IMG/VR virus record: IMGVR_UViG_2690316311_000019
Reading direction: 5' to 3' (one strand)
Source of the DNA: a virus
Taxonomy: Duplodnaviria > Heunggongvirae > Uroviricota > Caudoviricetes
DNA length: 64,000 nt
Positions 2,885 to 63,496 of the stretch are shown one piece after another (the stretch's first letter is position 1; each line of letters begins with the position of its first letter). The translations under genes were made by a program, and so were the position numbers. The notes below the pieces were generated by a model, which saw only the letters and a program-made list of their open reading frames with translations, was not told where the DNA came from and searched no databases.

Positions 2885-2959
2885 GATGGTGTAGCTCAGC
2901 GGTAGAGCAGTTGGCTGTTAACCAACTGGTCGGTAGTTCGAATCCACCCACCATCGCCA
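2885..2959 (+). tRNA. tRNA-Asn (anticodon GTT)
   Basis: Cloverleaf read by hand: acceptor GATGGTG/CACCATC, D-arm GCTC-AGCGGTA-GAGC, anticodon stem GTTGG/CCAAC with loop CTGTTAA, T-loop TTCGAAT, discriminator G + CCA. Confidence 0.8.
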
Positions 2960-2964
2960 CTTTA

Positions 2965-3051
2965 GGGGAGTTAGTCCGTAGGGGTAGCGGGGTAGACTGT
3001 AAATCTACTGTCATTGCGACTCGGGTGGTTCGACTCCATCACTCCCCACCA
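2965..3051 (+). tRNA. Type-II (long variable arm) tRNA-Tyr-like, anticodon GTA; D-arm pairing irregular, may be a pseudo-tRNA
   Basis: Acceptor GGGGAGT/ACTCCCC + A + CCA; anticodon stem GTAGA/TCTAC with loop CTGTAAA; variable arm and T-arm resemble E. coli tRNA-Tyr. Confidence 0.5.
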
Positions 3052-3055
3052 CATT

Positions 3056-3131
3056 GCCGATTTAGCTCAGTTGGTAGAGCAGTCGCTTTGTAAGCGAATG
3101 GTCAGCGGTTCGATCCCGTTAATCGGCACCA
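3056..3131 (+). tRNA. tRNA-Thr (anticodon TGT)
   Basis: Acceptor GCCGATT/AATCGGC, D-arm GCTC-AGTTGGTA-GAGC, anticodon loop TTTGTAA, T-loop TTCGATC, CCA end. Confidence 0.75.
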
Positions 3132-5076: not shown

Positions 5077-5152
5077 GGCCCTTTAGCTCAGTGGTTAGAG
5101 CTGGCGACTCATAATCGCACGGTCACCGGTTCAAGTCCGGTAGGGGCCACCA
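5077..5152 (+). tRNA. tRNA-Ile2-like (anticodon CAT, ileX-type, lysidine-decoding candidate)
   Basis: Acceptor GGCCCTT/AGGGGCC, anticodon loop CTCATAA, T-loop TTCAAGT, ACCA end; near-identical architecture to E. coli ileX. Confidence 0.7.
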
Positions 5153-29945: not shown

Positions 29946-31139
29946 GTGACCTGGGACGATCACAAGAAGAATTTTGCTCGCCTGGCGCGAGATGGTGGTT
30001 ACACCATCGCACAGTATGCCGCCGAGTTTAATCTTAACCCTAATACTGCACGTCGTTATCTCCGTGCCTTCAAAGAAGACACCAGGACAGCGGACAGCCG
30101 CAAGCCAAATAAGCCAGTCAGGAAGCCACTAAAAAGCATGATCATTGATCACTCTAATGATCAACATGCAGGTAATCACATTGCGGCTGAAATAGCGGAA
30201 AAACAAAGGGTTAATGCCGTTGTCAGTGCCGCAGTCGAGAATGCGAAGCGCCAAAATAAGCGCATAAATGATCGTTCTGATGATCATGACGTGATCACCC
30301 GCGCCCACCGGACCTTACGTGATCGCCTGGAACGCGACACCCTGGATGATGATGGTGAACGCTTTGAATTCGAAGCTGGCGATTACCTGATAGATAACGT
30401 TGAAGCGCGGAAGGCCGCGCGCGCTATGTTGCGTCGGTCCGGGGCCGATGTTCTGGAAACCACTCTTCTGGAAAAGTCTCTTTCTCATCTCCTTATGCTG
30501 GAGAACGCCAGGGATACGTGTATTCGTCTGGTGCAGGAAATGCGCGATCAGCAAAAAGACGATGATGAAGGGACTCCGCCTGAATATCGTATCGCGAGCA
30601 TGCTAAACAGCTGTTCCGCGCAGATAAGCAGCCTGATCAACACCATTTACAGCATCCGGAATAACTATCGAAAAGAAAGCCGGGAGGCGGAAAAGCACGC
30701 TTTATCTATGGGGCAAGCTGGCATTGTTAAGCTGGCATACGAACGAAAGCGTGAAAATAACTGGTCAGTGCTGGAAGCAGCTGAATTCATCGAGGCGCAT
30801 GGCGGGAAAGTGCCGCCCCTGATGCTGGAGCAAATCAAAGCCGATCTGCGTGCTCCTAAGACCAATACCGATGATGAGGAAAGGCAAACAGCCGTCGGTG
30901 GCCCTTCTCTTGAAGATCTGGACAAAGTTGCGCGAGAACGGGCCGCCAACCGCCGCGCGGATGCCGCATTGTGGATTGAGCAGCGTAGGGAAGAAATCGC
31001 CGATATCGTTGATACAGGCGGTTATGGAGATGTTGATACTGAAGGTGCATCAAACGACCCATGGCTGGAACAAGACCTGGACGAAGACGAGGAGGAAGAC
31101 GAAGAAGTTACCCGCAAGCTATACGGGGATGATGATTAA
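29946..31139 (+). CDS. pacA: Terminase small subunit / pac-site recognition protein PacA
   Basis: 397 aa; contains pac hexamer clusters; acidic C-terminus. Confidence 0.8.
30139..30325 (+). other. pac packaging site: two clusters of TGATCA/TGATCG hexamers (each containing a GATC Dam site)
   Basis: Hexamers at about 30139, 30146, 30158 and 30269, 30281, 30292, 30320. Confidence 0.7.
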
Positions 31140-32623
31140 TGGCCAGAAGTTGCGTAACGGATCCACGTTGGCGCGAGCTGGTGGCGCTATATCGTTATGA
31201 CTGGATTGCGGCCGCTGATGTTTTGTTCGGCAAAACACCTACCTGGCAGCAGGATCTGATTATTGAGTCTGTGCAGGAACAGGGTAGCAAGACATCTGTT
31301 TCGTCTGGTCACGGTACCGGGAAATCAGACATGACTTCTATCATGATCATGTTGTTCATAATCATGTATCCCGGTGCCCGAGCCATTATCGTTGCGAACA
31401 AAATTCAGCAGGTAATGACCGGTATATTCAAGTACATCAAGATAAACTGGGCTACTGCCACCAGCCGTTTCCCATGGCTTGCTGATTATTTTGTTCTGAC
31501 AGAAACCGCTTTCTATGAGGTTACTGGTAAAGGTGTATGGACTGTAGTACCGAAGGGCTTTCGTCTGGGAAGTGAAGAAGCTCTCGCCGGTGAACACGCA
31601 GATCATCTTCTGTATATTATCGATGAAGCCTCCGGTGTCAGTGATAGAGCTTTCGGTATCATCACCGGTGCTCTTACCGGACAGGATAACCGCATCTTAT
31701 TACTGTCACAGCCTACACGCCCAAGCGGCTATTTCTACGATACTCACCATAAACTGGCCAAGCGTCCTGGTAACCCTGATGGCGTTTATACGGCGATCAC
31801 GCTTAACAGTGAGGAATCACCGCTGGTAACGCCAGCATTTATCAAAATGAAGCTGGCGGAGTACGGCGGGCGCGATAACCCTATGTACATGATTAAGGTA
31901 CGCGGCCTATTCCCTAAATCACAGGATGGCTTCCTTCTTGGACGTGATGAGGTTGAACGTGCAACGCGGCGGAAAGTCAAGATTGCAAAAGGATGGGGCT
32001 GGCTTGCATGTGTGGACGTTGCTGGTGGTACGGGACGGGATAAGTCCGTTATCAATATCATGATGGTGTCCGGCCAGCGAAATAAACGCCGTGTAATCAA
32101 CTATCGAATGCTGGAATACACAGACGTTACAGAAACGCAGCTTGCCGCCAAAATTTTCGCAGAATGTAATCCTGAGCGATTCCCAAATATCACCATAGCG
32201 ATAGACGGCGATGGCCTGGGTAAAGCAACGGCGGATCTGATGTACGAGTATTATGGTATTACCGTACAGCGTATACGCTGGGGTAAAAAGATGCATAGCC
32301 GTGAAGATAAGAGCCTGTACTTTGATAAACGTGCTTATGCCAACGTTCAAGCCGCAGAGGCCGTAAAATCTGGTCGTATGAGACTGGATAAGGGTAATGA
32401 AACTATTGAGGAAGCGTCGAAAATCCCTGTAGGGATTAACTCCGCAGGTCAATGGAAAGTGATGAGTAAGGAGGATATGAAGAAAAAACTCAACCTGCAC
32501 TCACCAGACCATTGGGATACATATTGTTTCGCTATGCTGGCTGATTATGTTCCCCAGGATGAAGTGCTTAGCGTCGAAGACGAAGCGCAGGTTGATGAAG
32601 CTCTGGCATGGCTTAATGAATGA
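31139..32623 (+). CDS. pacB: Terminase large subunit PacB
   Basis: 494 aa; Walker [15 protein letters not shown] overlap with pacA. Confidence 0.8.
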
Positions 32624-32626
32624 ATA

Positions 32627-32643
32627 TTTGCTCTAATAAATTG
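32627..32643 (+). promoter_or_regulatory. C1 operator (TTTGCTCTAATAAATTG) just after pacB stop
   Basis: 15/17 match to consensus. Confidence 0.6.
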
Positions 32644-32699
32644 TGTTTTTTAGCTACCGATGTTACATTGAACCTGACCTCTTGCGCCTTGAGGCATTT

Positions 32700-32796
32700 T
32701 CGGTTTATGCTTATCAGGCACCTCATTAAAACGGGTGCCGGGATTGGCCTCCCGCTTAAGTCTAAGGCGATACAGACGCCGCTCGCGTCTTTTTTT
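32700..32796 (+). ncRNA. Candidate C4-type antisense RNA (anti-SD GCCTCCC, duplicate GTCTAAGG box, intrinsic terminator)
   Basis: GCCTCCC at about 32747 complementary to RBS GGAGGC at about 32949; hairpin GACGC-CGCTC-GCGTC + T7 at 32775-32796; no credible ORF. Confidence 0.35.
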
Positions 32797-32961
32797 GTAT
32801 CGGCGTACACGCACACCTCTACAATGGTGGGCTGTATGGGGCTACCTTCGGGTAGGCTGGTTACCTTGGACGCCAGTAAGGCCAACTCCGTACAGTCCAC
32901 CGCCAGCAAGATTGGTCTCTTCTGCGGTGGTTACATACCAACGTCTAAGGAGGCTGCCAAT

Positions 32962-33183
32962 ATGGCTACTATCCCTACCCCAACTCATCCTGAATTTATC
33001 TGGCGCTTTTACTCCTGCCAAAAACGTCACTATCACTTCGTTATTGCACCAACAGAAGATGAGGCCCGCTCTCAGCTTCCTGACGCCCCATGTATTTTCT
33101 CTGCCCGTTTTTCCACTGATTCACGCAATTCTCTCAGTTACTGGTGCCTCCCTGTTAACGCTTCTGCTCAGGAGGGACTATGA
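32962..33183 (+). CDS. 73-aa ORF translationally coupled to antirepressor (icd-like position)
   Basis: Strong RBS TAAGGAGG 8 nt upstream; stop TGA overlaps next ATG. Confidence 0.45.
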   Translation: MATIPTPTHPEFIWRFYSCQKRHYHFVIAPTEDEARSQLPDAPCIFSARFSTDSRNSLSYWCLPVNASAQEGL

Positions 33184-34297
33184 GAACGTCATTAGTCACC
33201 CGTGAAGAGATGATCGAGGCAATTGAACAGCACACTGCCTGTATCAGTACCAGGGATATACCAGGCGTTATTGCCAACTACTTCATGATCACCAAACAAC
33301 TTTACCGGAGAAAGGACAAGAACGCGGTTCACCGTATCCTGTTGTCTGATATCCGCGAATACCTGCTCGAACAGGGTCATCTGAATTACGCAACCGTCGC
33401 AGCCGAAGCACGCAAGGAGGCACACAGAATGAAAGCAACTAACGTTAAATCAGAAAAAATTCATGCACCTTCAGTTCAGGAATCGGAGCTGGTGGTTGTT
33501 CAGAATCAGTCTGATGAAATTCCCGTTCTGGAATGGCAGGGAGTGCGTGTAGTGACAACCGAGACTCTTGCTAGAGGGTATGGGACAGAAACAATCCGTA
33601 TTCGCCAAAATCATCATGAGAACAAAGTACGCTTTGTTGAAGGGAAGCACTTTTTCAAAGTTGAAGGAGAATCATTGCGCGAGTTGAAGCACAGAGTAGC
33701 TTTAAACTACTCTGTAAAAATTGCTCGCAATGTTCGCTCACTCCCCTCTGGACAGAACGCGGCGCAGCCCGCCACGCTAAAATGCTCGAAACCGATCAGG
33801 CATGGGCATTCTTTGAAAAACTGGAAGACAGCTACTTCCGACAAAAAGAACAGCAACCGATCGCAATCCCCCAGACGCTTCCTGAAGCCCTACGCCTGGC
33901 TGCCGAACTGGCTGAACAAAAGCAACTTCTGGAACAGAAAGCCCACCAGCTAAATCAGCAGCTGGTGGCCGCCGCTCCTAAAGTCGATTTTGCCGACCGG
34001 GTATCAGTAGCTAAAGGGATCCTGATTGGGAATTTTGCAAAGGTTGTTGGACTTAAGCAAAACGCGCTGTTTGTCTGGTTACGGGAGAACGGCATCCTGA
34101 TAGCGTCCGGTGGACGTAAAAATGTGCCGTTCCAGCAGTACATCAACGCGGGGTATTTCACGGTGAAAGAAGTGGTGCTGGATGATGAAGATGGCTACCA
34201 GATACGGTTGACGCCTCAATTAACGGGTAAAGGCCAGCAGTGGTTGACGCGTAAACTGCTCGATGCTGGCTTGTTAAAACCGGTGGCAGCTGAATAA
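33180..34297 (+). CDS. Antirepressor-like protein (N-terminal ORF6N-like domain, C-terminal KilA-C/Ant domain) encoded in two frames (33180-33953 and 33782-34297)
   Basis: EWQGVRVVTTETLARGYG...FVEGKHFFKVEGESLRELK in frame 0; FADRVSVAKGILIGNFAKVVGLKQNALFVWLRENGIL in frame 2. Confidence 0.5.
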
Positions 34298-34329
34298 TGG
34301 AAGAATGCCCGGTTGATGCCGGGCATAAT

Positions 34330-35181
34330 TTATTGCGCGCTTTCGGGGGTGTCGTTTACTGGCTGCCCCTTCTTGGTTTTACGGCTGCGCGTAACTGATG
34401 CGGCTGACTTAACCTTTTTCTCTTCGCGAGTGATGGCAATTTGTTTTTTTACATTTTCAATATCTGCCAGGCGATATATTTTTGCTTGCGGCCAGCGGTC
34501 GCAGATGATCGGTTCTATGGAGTCATAAAGGCTAAATTTTGCTTTTTCGAATTCACCGTTGATGATAATTCCATCACGGAGAGTTTCATCGCAGATAAAC
34601 ACGCCACACAGTGGCACATGGTAACTAACTGATTTACCATCATTGTAGTTAGGGCTACTGGAAATGTAGTGGACGCGCAGCATTGTTTCGCTAAAGCCGT
34701 GTACGCGCATACGGAATTTTTCATCCTCCGGGTACTGCTTCATTAGCTCTTTTGTTGCTTCCAGGTTCTCTATGTATTTCGCACTGTGCTCATTGATCCC
34801 CGCGCTTTTTTGGATGCGAATGTCCTTATCAATCAGATGAATAATGCGGCCAGCGGTCATGTTGACGCTGTTCACAGCTTCTGTCTGATAAGTTGTAACC
34901 TTACGCACACCGCGAAGGATGTTAGGCACTGGATATAAAATAGTCTTTGGGATATTGAGGTCTGGGTACTGTTCCAGTTCCCGCGCCATTAAAGTCCATT
35001 TATCAATTTCAGCCTGAATGCTGTCAGTTTCTTTGAACGGTAGAACGACAACCGGGCGTACAGGACGACCGTCGCTGGCTGTATCAACGTGTTGGGCGCG
35101 TGCAACAGCTTTTTTTAGAAAGAGATCCCTGAAGCTGACGAACTCCTGGTACAGTTGTTCGCCGTAGACATAATTTATCAT
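34330..35181 (-). CDS. c1: C1 repressor of lysis
   Basis: 283 aa; adjacent to coi and loxP-cre; many cognate operators in window. Confidence 0.8.
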   Translation of the reverse strand: MINYVYGEQLYQEFVSFRDLFLKKAVARAQHVDTASDGRPVRPVVVLPFKETDSIQAEIDKWTLMARELEQYPDLNIPKTILYPVPNILRGVRKVTTYQTEAVNSVNMTAGRIIHLIDKDIRIQKSAGINEHSAKYIENLEATKELMKQYPEDEKFRMRVHGFSETMLRVHYISSSPNYNDGKSVSYHVPLCGVFICDETLRDGIIINGEFEKAKFSLYDSIEPIICDRWPQAKIYRLADIENVKKQIAITREEKKVKSAASVTRSRKTKKGQPVNDTPESAQ

Positions 35182-62918: not shown

Positions 62919-63496
62919 TTATTGCGGGGCGACTGGCCACTCAACATCCGATGCTACTGTTGTATCAACACGATTCAACAATACCCGATATGTCTTCCAT
63001 GCAGTCAGTAACGATGCCTCTTCCTCCGTCGCAATATCCAAATCTACGGCATCCTGAAGTGGCGCAATATGCTCACTGGCCATCTGCATCAGGCTGTTTT
63101 TTGTTTCTTCCGCCTTCCGGATCCGGAACAGTTTTTCTGCTTCTGCATCTTTCACCCAGGCTGTGCCGTTCCACTTCTGAAACTCCCCTTCCGGGGATAA
63201 CCAGGTGACATTTTCCGGTAATGGGCCAAGTTCAGAAATAAATAACGCGTCGCCGGAAGCCACGTCATAGACGGTTTTTCCCCGATGGTCTTCAACGAGA
63301 TTCCACGATGCCTCATCACTGTTGAAAACGGCCACGAAGCCAGCCGGAATATCTGGCGGGGCAATATCGGTACTGTTTGCAGGCAGACCTGTATGAGGTG
63401 GAATGTATGCATCACCTTCACCAATAAACTCATTGGTTCCAGCCAGTAGATTATAAATTTTTATGGTCCGTGATTGTTCACTCATTCTGAATGTCA

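Follow-up and report, generated by a model that had tools for sequence, protein, structure and literature searches.

The immI region of phages P1 and P7 (Rfam RF01695 and RF03163), located between sim and kilA (sim - immI - kilA/repL), is composed of a C1 operator at the promoter, the boxes a1 and b1, the C4 RNA, the boxes a2 and b2, of which b2 lies over the ribosome-binding site of icd, and a 73-amino-acid (aa) Icd coupled through ATGA to Ant1, inside which Ant2 starts 249 nucleotides (nt) further on. A relative of the C4 RNA acts in P4, where transcription is described as being terminated prematurely by the CI RNA before it reaches the replication genes, and no antirepressor is involved. 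Other described systems are the immI of phage D6 (NC_050154) and the isrK-orf45-anrP locus of Gifsy-1, for which a model of leader activation, and not of C4 repression, has been published (PMC4825925). Here, the region between pacB and c1 is described in a 64,000-nt stretch of DNA from a P1-like phage-plasmid (IMG/VR virus record IMGVR_UViG_2690316311_000019; the whole stretch is called the window below). This region is very likely a complete second immI-type module, of the subtype with a D6/IsrK leader, carried as a 1.7-kilobase (kb) cassette.

The gene order of the window, pacA (29946-31139), pacB (31139-32623), c1 (34330-35181, minus strand), coi and cre, is that of P1. The stop codons of pacB (at 32623) and c1 (at 34330) enclose the cassette (32624-34329), while in P1 they are 24 nt apart. 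The closest complete relative of the window, plasmid pF1273-3 of E. coli O157:H7, is collinear with it at 98.4-99.96% identity (100% over 32300-34700), and has in addition a canonical immI made up of a C4 RNA (68.4 bits), a c4-a1b1 leader (a match to RF03163), icd, a 347-aa ant and kilA. This canonical immI falls outside the part of pF1273-3 that corresponds to the window, and the window itself has a single C4 match. Since the gap in P1 is so short and pF1273-3 keeps its canonical immI elsewhere, the module is an extra one and not part of the backbone. This agrees with a first-pass annotation of this DNA, which had suggested an extra or relocated module on the ground that nothing of this size separates pacB from c1 in P1. 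The cassette is absent from P1, P7 and SJ46, which, together with others, align only to the flanks of the query (29% coverage), and its limits are indicated by five non-P1 IMG/VR contigs in which homology spans only 32628-34288. The module is not rare: 271 PLSDB plasmids have the whole arrangement of pacB, module and c1, as do phages RCS47, JL22 and vB_EcoM-673R5. An inserted ant gene at the pacB-c1 site was already remarked by Venturini et al., including that of RCS47 (PMC6906374), whose record annotates 'ant' at this place. Thus, the module is common in natural P1-like plasmids, is partly annotated in RefSeq and is mentioned in the literature, and it is its RNA part for which literature searches returned no analysis, nor any paper linking IsrK to P1 C4. 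A copy under an unexpected label is a 3.7-kb contig named 'MAG: Bacillota bacterium' (L011, JAFAFU010000035.1), which has a 96%-identical Icd together with a leader and C4 of the same type as the window; it is probably a mis-binned fragment of an enterobacterial phage-plasmid.

The core of the module is a pair of RNA genes, seen as adjacent tandem Rfam matches on the plus strand, both above the gathering score (all features of the module given below are on this strand unless otherwise stated). The upstream one is an IsrK-type leader RNA (32718-32795; RF01394, 60.8 bits against a gathering score of 50, model positions 1-77), which contains a1, b1 and an intrinsic terminator. The downstream one is a C4-type antisense RNA (32820-32907; RF01695, 75.9 bits against 45, full length 1-87). 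The first-pass annotation, which proposed the Rfam C4 model as a check, was therefore right about the kind of RNA, but it had placed the RNA near 32747, upstream of the terminator and not downstream of it. The C4 segment alone folds to the family structure (the minimum free energy structure equals the consensus) at -41.6 kcal/mol with z = -3.5, and the mature RNA would extend from about 32826 to 32901, judging from homology to P1 c4. The terminator had been recognized correctly; the terminator scan finds a hairpin, AGACGC/GCGTCT, followed by seven T residues at 32774-32796.

In the leader, the a1 box (TTGGCCT, 32744-32750) lies in a hairpin loop of the predicted fold and is followed by the b1 box (GTCTAAGG, 32760-32767). 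In C4, the partner of the b boxes is b' (CCTTGGAC, 32864-32871), presented as CCUUGGAC in the second hairpin loop, and that of the a boxes is a' (AGGCCAA, 32879-32885), in a single-stranded stretch. Downstream of C4, the a2 box (TTGGTCT, 32912-32918) pairs with a' with one G-U, and the b2 box, again GTCTAAGG (32943-32950, or 32943-32953 including the overlap described next), pairs with b'. This b2, the second copy of the duplicated box that had been spotted from the letters, overlaps the Shine-Dalgarno (SD) sequence AAGGAGG of the icd-like gene (32947-32953). The parts follow one another as in the annotated P1 immI, namely Oc4 operator, P2c4/P1c4 promoters, a1, b1, c4, a2, b2, icd, ant1 and ant2, so that the proposal of an immI-type architecture stands. 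In contrast to P1/P7 immI, the leader matches the isrK model and gives no match to RF03163 (c4-a1b1), and the a/b code is a different one. The canonical intrinsic terminator of the window is a further difference, since the scan found none in the P1 leader. A different antisense element had been suggested in the first-pass annotation, in which GCCTCCC would pair with GGAGGC of the SD of icd. The motif is present (32747-32753), but the pairing does not covary: the SD is invariant, while the position of GCCTCCC reads GAACCCC or AGACCCC in other variants. The motif is made up of the 3' portion of a1 followed by conserved C residues, and this candidate was rejected.

To examine the pairings, a conserved segment of icd was used as the pattern for scanning IMG/VR, and 120 stretches were returned. 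The regions upstream of icd in these stretches are of two architectures. Type A has a P1-like c4-a1b1 leader and adjoins sim; type B has the IsrK-type leader with its terminator, is flanked by pacB in 50 of 57 cases, and is followed by c1 wherever the downstream sequence is sufficient (a DNA marker for kilA was useless for genomic context, as it cross-matches ant). An alignment of 26 distinct type-B sequences is the basis of the pair counts. The type-B a box occurs in three forms (GGCCT/GGTCT, GGAAC and GAGAC), and so does the b box (GTCTAAGG, GCAAAAGG and GTCAAAGG). The a and b boxes assort independently, in five combinations, and in all sequences except one recombinant each C4 loop is in a three-way match with its upstream and downstream box copies. 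In that recombinant (L094:5029-5318, minus strand), a1 is TTGAGAC and is mismatched to its own a' and a2 (GTTCCAA and TTGGAAC), the sole broken three-way match seen.

When the C4 helices are taken together with a'/a2 and b'/b2, all 1092 cells of the 42 pairs are paired, and 16 pairs have changed on both sides. The internal helices of C4 contribute 27 of these pairs, 9 of them with compensatory changes. The remaining 15 belong to a'/a2 and b'/b2, where every cell is paired and 7 pairs have changed on both sides (4 of 7 in a'/a2 and 3 of 8 in b'/b2). None of 500 shuffles reached the observed pairing or covariation score, and controls in which the sequences were slid against each other gave 26-50% pairing. 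On the upstream side, a1/a' and b1/b' with the leader hairpins are 99.4% paired, again reached by 0 of 500 shuffles, and for a1 and b1 against the C4 loops alone the values are 99.5-100% with 7 covarying pairs. Whole-molecule RNAduplex of C4 against its targets was uninformative, because it unfolds the C4 stems, and duplexes of the loops only were used instead. For the b boxes, these gave -11.7 to -13.9 kcal/mol for cognate and -2.8 to -10.0 kcal/mol for non-cognate combinations, with -13.9 for b2/b' of the window. In 7 of the 26 variants, the icd start codon is GTG and not ATG.

The protein-coding part of the module resembles that of P1. The Icd-like open reading frame (ORF) of 73 aa (32962-33183; NCBIfam NF033153, 49.8 bits) is preceded by the SD mentioned above, and its stop overlaps the ant start as ATGA (33180-33183), in agreement with what had been read from the letters. 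As for the comparison with P1 that had been recommended, the ORF is 80% identical to P1 Icd, with the first ~10 codons differing, and its first five codons (MATIP) are those of the Stx-phage gene at the same position. A search of genome contigs with the 73-aa Icd gave 3 near-identical loci. The antirepressor gene (33180-34297) has its Ant1 start at 33180, and 249 nt further, the offset of P1 ant2, an in-frame ATG (33429) with its own SD, AAGGAGG, is a predicted Ant2-like start. As first observed, however, the gene is split over two frames: Pfam places ORF6N in the frame 33180-33953, where frame 1 stops, and KilA-C (ANT) in the frame 33782-34297. The KilA-C C-terminus is about 90% identical to that of P1/P7. 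In the intact 372-aa Ant of plasmid pE2-2, the N-terminal 84 residues (Ant1-specific), the internal in-frame start with its AAGGAGG at the 249-nt offset and a near-identical KilA-C C-terminus are common with canonical Ant, whereas the centre is an ORF6N domain unlike the canonical one; the overall identity is 56%.

The frame switch is caused by the loss of one nucleotide after 33743. In an alignment with pE2-2 (99.8% identical) and RCS47, the window lacks one A, reading TCACTC-CCCTCTGG against TCACTCACCCTCTGG or TCACTCATCCTCTGG; pE2-2 has TCACTCACCCTCTGG together with the intact ORF. The deleted base is not in a homopolymer run. Exactly the same allele recurs in 4 PLSDB plasmids, and 7 complete E. 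coli genomes, which come from several projects, have it too (F1273 and TX 376-2 of O157:H7; EH2252; EH031; UTAK-13; OkiPb01717; and CEC12044 of O103:H2). This rules out the sequencing error that the first-pass annotation had listed beside a pseudogene, programmed frameshifting and two genes; of these four, the pseudogene is the one to which the evidence points, and the last two are weighed below. About 130 genomes carry this ant variant, ~95% of them with a single intact ORF, and type-B ant ORFs in the IMG/VR sample are overwhelmingly 370-372 aa; RefSeq marks the window-type ant as 'frameshifted'. From these comparisons, the frame switch is a real inherited deletion, with predicted loss of function, in a plasmid lineage associated with Shiga toxin-producing E. 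coli (STEC). Thus, an intact antirepressor with KilA-C is found in relatives such as pE2-2 and not in the window, where the deletion separates ORF6N from KilA-C, and from the window allele the RNAs and Icd are most likely still produced, but a functional antirepressor is not.

Upstream of the leader, the elements expected of an immI region follow pacB directly. A C1 repressor operator of the Oc4/Op51 type (TTTGCTCTAATAAATTG, 32627-32643), the presence of which at this place had been claimed before, matches 15 of 17 positions of the P1 consensus ATTGCTCTAATAAATTT and aligns with P1 Oc4; C1 binding to it is predicted. With up to 3 mismatches, the window has 15 such sites against 0.26 expected by chance. 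They are scattered across it (e.g., at 2203, 18431, 35740 and 51670), with an overlapping inverted pair at 2203-2230. A putative C1-controlled promoter of the P51a/P2c4 type (TTGTGT-17 nt-TACATT, 32641-32669) is proposed by analogy with the P1 annotation, on the basis of where it lies with respect to the operator. A second putative promoter, presumed to be constitutive and to drive the leader (TTGCGC-18 nt-TATGCT, 32682-32711), is situated 6 nt before the first position of the isrK model. Both the -35 and the geometry recur in D6 (TTGCGC, 18 nt, TATATT), which would put +1 at that position, near 32718, and the -10 is conserved in P4-like and Stx-phage homologues. At the other end of the module, a hairpin terminator with a 9-bp stem including 6 G-C pairs (34305-34326, assigned to neither strand) is located between the convergent ant and c1.

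On the anatomy and pairings observed above, a working scheme can be built by analogy with P1 immI, for which the notes of the P1 GenBank annotation were used, and with Gifsy-1 IsrK; for P1 immI, the scheme reportedly goes back to the papers of Citron, Biere and Schuster. Transcription would start both from the constitutive promoter and from the upstream promoter overlapping the C1 operator. Most transcripts would end at the terminator at 32774-32796, giving a leader RNA of ~78 nt in which a1 and b1 are displayed, and those that read through may be processed to a C4-type RNA of ~76 nt. The b' loop and the single-stranded a' of this RNA would pair with b2 and a2 in the icd-ant mRNA, and because b2 lies over the icd SD, translation of icd would be blocked. 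Since ant is coupled to icd through ATGA, synthesis of the antirepressor would be turned off as well, probably with Rho-dependent polarity. In this scheme, a1 and b1 of the leader would serve as a decoy that competes for the C4 loops and sets the threshold of the switch.

Among the described systems, D6 immI has exactly the type-B architecture, with isrK-type leader, C4, icd and ant. The box class of D6 (TTGAGAC and GCAAAAGG) also occurs at the pacB-c1 site of P1-like plasmids. D6 differs from the window in having no P1-type C1 operator within 3 kb, in its genomic context and in its Ant, which is 313 aa long and annotated as Rha/Roi/KilA-like. Gifsy-1 shares with the window a terminated leader small RNA (sRNA) of ~77 nt that is complementary to a conserved RNA just downstream (PMC4825925). 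Both the terminated IsrK and a processed RNA of ~80 nt (STnc1160), at the position where the window has C4, have been detected there; the authors likened the system to P4 CI/seqA and read the conserved downstream RNA as 'orf45' (PMC4825925). Unlike in the window, where the coupled ORF is Icd-like, there is no icd in Gifsy-1, the small coupled orf45 overlaps the C4-like RNA, and the effector acts on a lambdoid repressor and AntQ. A short ORF of this kind, overlapping the RNA and ending in AUGA, was not found in the window, in which the ORF from 32824 runs into icd.

P4 immunity (CI RNA with seqA/seqC) is similar in that an RNA of the C4/CI type is processed from a leader and has complementary repeats on both sides. 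It controls the alpha/primase operon, whereas icd and ant are downstream in the window and no primase follows. Closer to the window are chromosomal P4-like elements of E. coli, whose leader and C4 are 84-89% identical to it; their a1 and a' are identical to those of the window, the a2 of the element in O157:H7 E32511 is TTGGCCT, and the b boxes differ. In E32511 an Icd-like ORF comes next, and a primase-type gene is present both in this element and in that of strain MS14385. Stx2 phages (P13374, TL-2011c, phi191 and many Stx2a phages) are ~79% identical to the window over leader, C4, target boxes and SD. They differ in the a/b class (TTGCTAC with CAATCAAGG) and in lacking icd, so that the RNA module stands directly before a Rha-family gene with the MATIP start. 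Within the antirepressor region of Stx2 phage P13374 of O104:H4, beside antB2 (L132:3523-3606) and ~800 nt downstream of isrK-C4, there is also an Rfam match to sRNA-Xcc1 (RF02221, 79.6 bits). The tandem of isrK and C4 is thus general, and P1 C4, Gifsy-1 IsrK and P4 CI, which are usually treated apart, form one family of switches made of a leader decoy, an antisense RNA and a coupled ORF.

Several points weigh against the interpretation of the region as a C4-controlled immI module. A consensus promoter scan flagged neither of the two proposed promoters, and the promoters, the processing and the Rho-dependent polarity are all assigned by homology. The covariation comes from about 3 x 3 box classes spread by recombination, and so represents few independent events, although a and b assort independently, which is an argument that each pairing is under selection. 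The broken ant puts selection on the circuit in the window allele in question. Moreover, the IsrK leader of Gifsy-1 was reported to activate downstream translation and not merely to titrate a repressor RNA (PMC4825925), which makes the sign of the net leader effect in the window uncertain. It is possible, if rather doubtful, that the logic of Gifsy-1 dominates here as well: the terminated leader would act in trans to open an inhibitory structure of the read-through mRNA and so activate a small ORF and the coupled antirepressor, the C4-like piece being mainly a cis-inhibitory structure or a by-product of processing. The isrK match, the complementarity of the leader to the downstream RNA and the experimental support in Salmonella (PMC4825925) speak for this, as does the geometry, since the window has, like Gifsy-1, a pair of AUGs (32824 and 32836, within C4) spaced 12 nt from each other at the same distance of ~30 nt past the leader, a terminator, and coupling to the antirepressor through AUGA. 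However, covariation with the C4 loops is just as strict for a2 and b2 as for a1 and b1, which is expected if C4 targets the mRNA as in P1. The module also has a P1-type icd-ant, and the ORF that opens inside C4 is not conserved, being open into icd in 8 of the 26 type-B variants and stopped 6-8 codons before icd in the other 18 (the in-frame stop in the variants read is TAG). The activation model and C4 repression are not mutually exclusive. The view that the module in the window lineage is a decaying, functionless remnant, carried along with a dead antirepressor, is unlikely. It would account for the frameshift and the pseudogene flag of RefSeq, and the closest relative has a canonical immI with an intact ant elsewhere; but plasmids with intact ant share 100% identity with the window in operator, leader, C4, target boxes and icd, the lesion is a single one, and the spread of the allele extends over 7 complete genomes from several STEC serotypes. 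Even without Ant, an element that keeps C4 would remain immune, at the RNA level, to incoming elements of its own class.

Two further readings are highly improbable when set beside that of a C4-controlled module. According to one, Ant function is retained, either because programmed -1 slippage on C_CCC (33743-33746) joins the frames or because these encode two separate proteins. A -1 slip of tRNA-Pro on C CCC would indeed give SLPLWTERG in place of the intact SLTLWTERG, and the second frame has an ATG at 33782. This ATG has no SD, however, and the site has neither an X XXY YYZ heptamer nor an obvious downstream stimulatory structure; the CCCC run exists only through the deletion of the A, intact relatives having ACCC or ATCC, and the single ORF is intact in nearly all genomes with this ant variant, as described above. 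The other, equally improbable, sees 32620-32960 not as RNA genes but as the coding sequence of an 'Ash family' protein that is in frame with, and fused to, Icd. The first-pass annotation had seen no credible ORF over ~320 bp here, which is not strictly correct: one frame is formally open from 32620 to 33183, the Prokaryotic Genome Annotation Pipeline (PGAP) calls an 'ash family' pseudogene there, and the translation of 32722-32958 matches Pfam PF10554 (Phage_ASH) with 30.5 bits against a gathering score of 26. Nevertheless, two Rfam models cover the stretch, other variants have in-frame stops, P1 has an early stop in the same frame, and the changes are compensatory for RNA helices and not conservative for a protein, so that the covariation marks the stretch as RNA, in line with the other half of the earlier claim. 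In Gifsy-1 too, its authors found the nucleotide sequence conserved and the amino-acid sequence not (PMC4825925). Calls of PF10554 or of the PGAP 'ash family protein' over the translation of an IsrK leader plus C4 recur: besides the window (32620-32958, 30.5 bits), they are seen in the P4-like satellite of MS14385 (L133:2120-3148, 50.6 bits) and in many RefSeq records. The Phage_ASH family may have been modelled largely on RNA genes and not on a protein, and annotations as 'ash family protein' are flagged here as overlying RNA genes.

The specificity of the module lies in its boxes. In the code of the window, a reads TTGGCCT or TTGGTCT and b reads GTCTAAGG; in that of the canonical immI of pF1273-3, a is TTTGACAG and b is GATTGTG. 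Since these codes are unrelated, the two circuits in pF1273-3 are orthogonal. The 42-nt core of the C4 of the window, which includes both loops, was found in 132 of 5,426 complete genomes, and its 134 places are plasmids in 129 cases and the chromosome in 5. Cross-talk with Stx phages through an identical class was considered and is unsupported, as the core lies mostly on plasmids in this way and the Stx-phage and P4-like homologues read have other b boxes. The chromosomal P4-like satellite of MS14385 (L133) combines the a boxes of the window with the b box of Stx phages, which indicates that boxes are shuffled among types of elements. MS14385 also has a P1-like plasmid (NZ_LR130557.1) with the C4 class of the window, and partial cross-recognition of RNAs between the satellite and this plasmid is possible. 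The type-A modules near sim (IMG/VR L012-L131) have at least 6 b-box classes (GTTAGTG, GATTGTG, GTACATG, ACTTACG, ACGAATG and ACTTGTG) and 2 a-box classes; their C4 loops always match their boxes, and the immunity specificities are far more numerous than the classical pair of P1 and P7.

In its most general form, the idea would be that natural P1-like phage-plasmids run two orthogonal RNA-gated antirepressor circuits with a combinatorial a x b code, taking its boxes from a pool to which D6-like plasmids, P4-like satellites and Stx-converting phages also have access. Taken as a whole, this is improbable. If it is true, the antirepressor of an element could be repressed or derepressed in part by the C4 or the leader of a different element in the same cell, for example in the case of the MS14385 satellite, and alleles that have lost ant but keep C4, such as that of the window, could be selected in STEC as pure immunity or 'anti-induction' devices. 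Of the 5,426 complete genomes of E. coli, about 130, including many from STEC, have a P1-like plasmid with an extra C4/antirepressor switch whose code is unlike that of the canonical immI. This bears on heteroimmunity, coexistence and mutual induction of phage-plasmids, while current understanding is not overturned.

Away from the module, the window contains a full-length match to Rfam IS009 (RF02111, 192 bits) on the minus strand at 62956-63154, near its end. Four tRNA genes are matched by Rfam on the plus strand at 2885-3128 and 5077-5149 (69.9, 41.9, 67.8 and 64.7 bits), three of which are tightly clustered.

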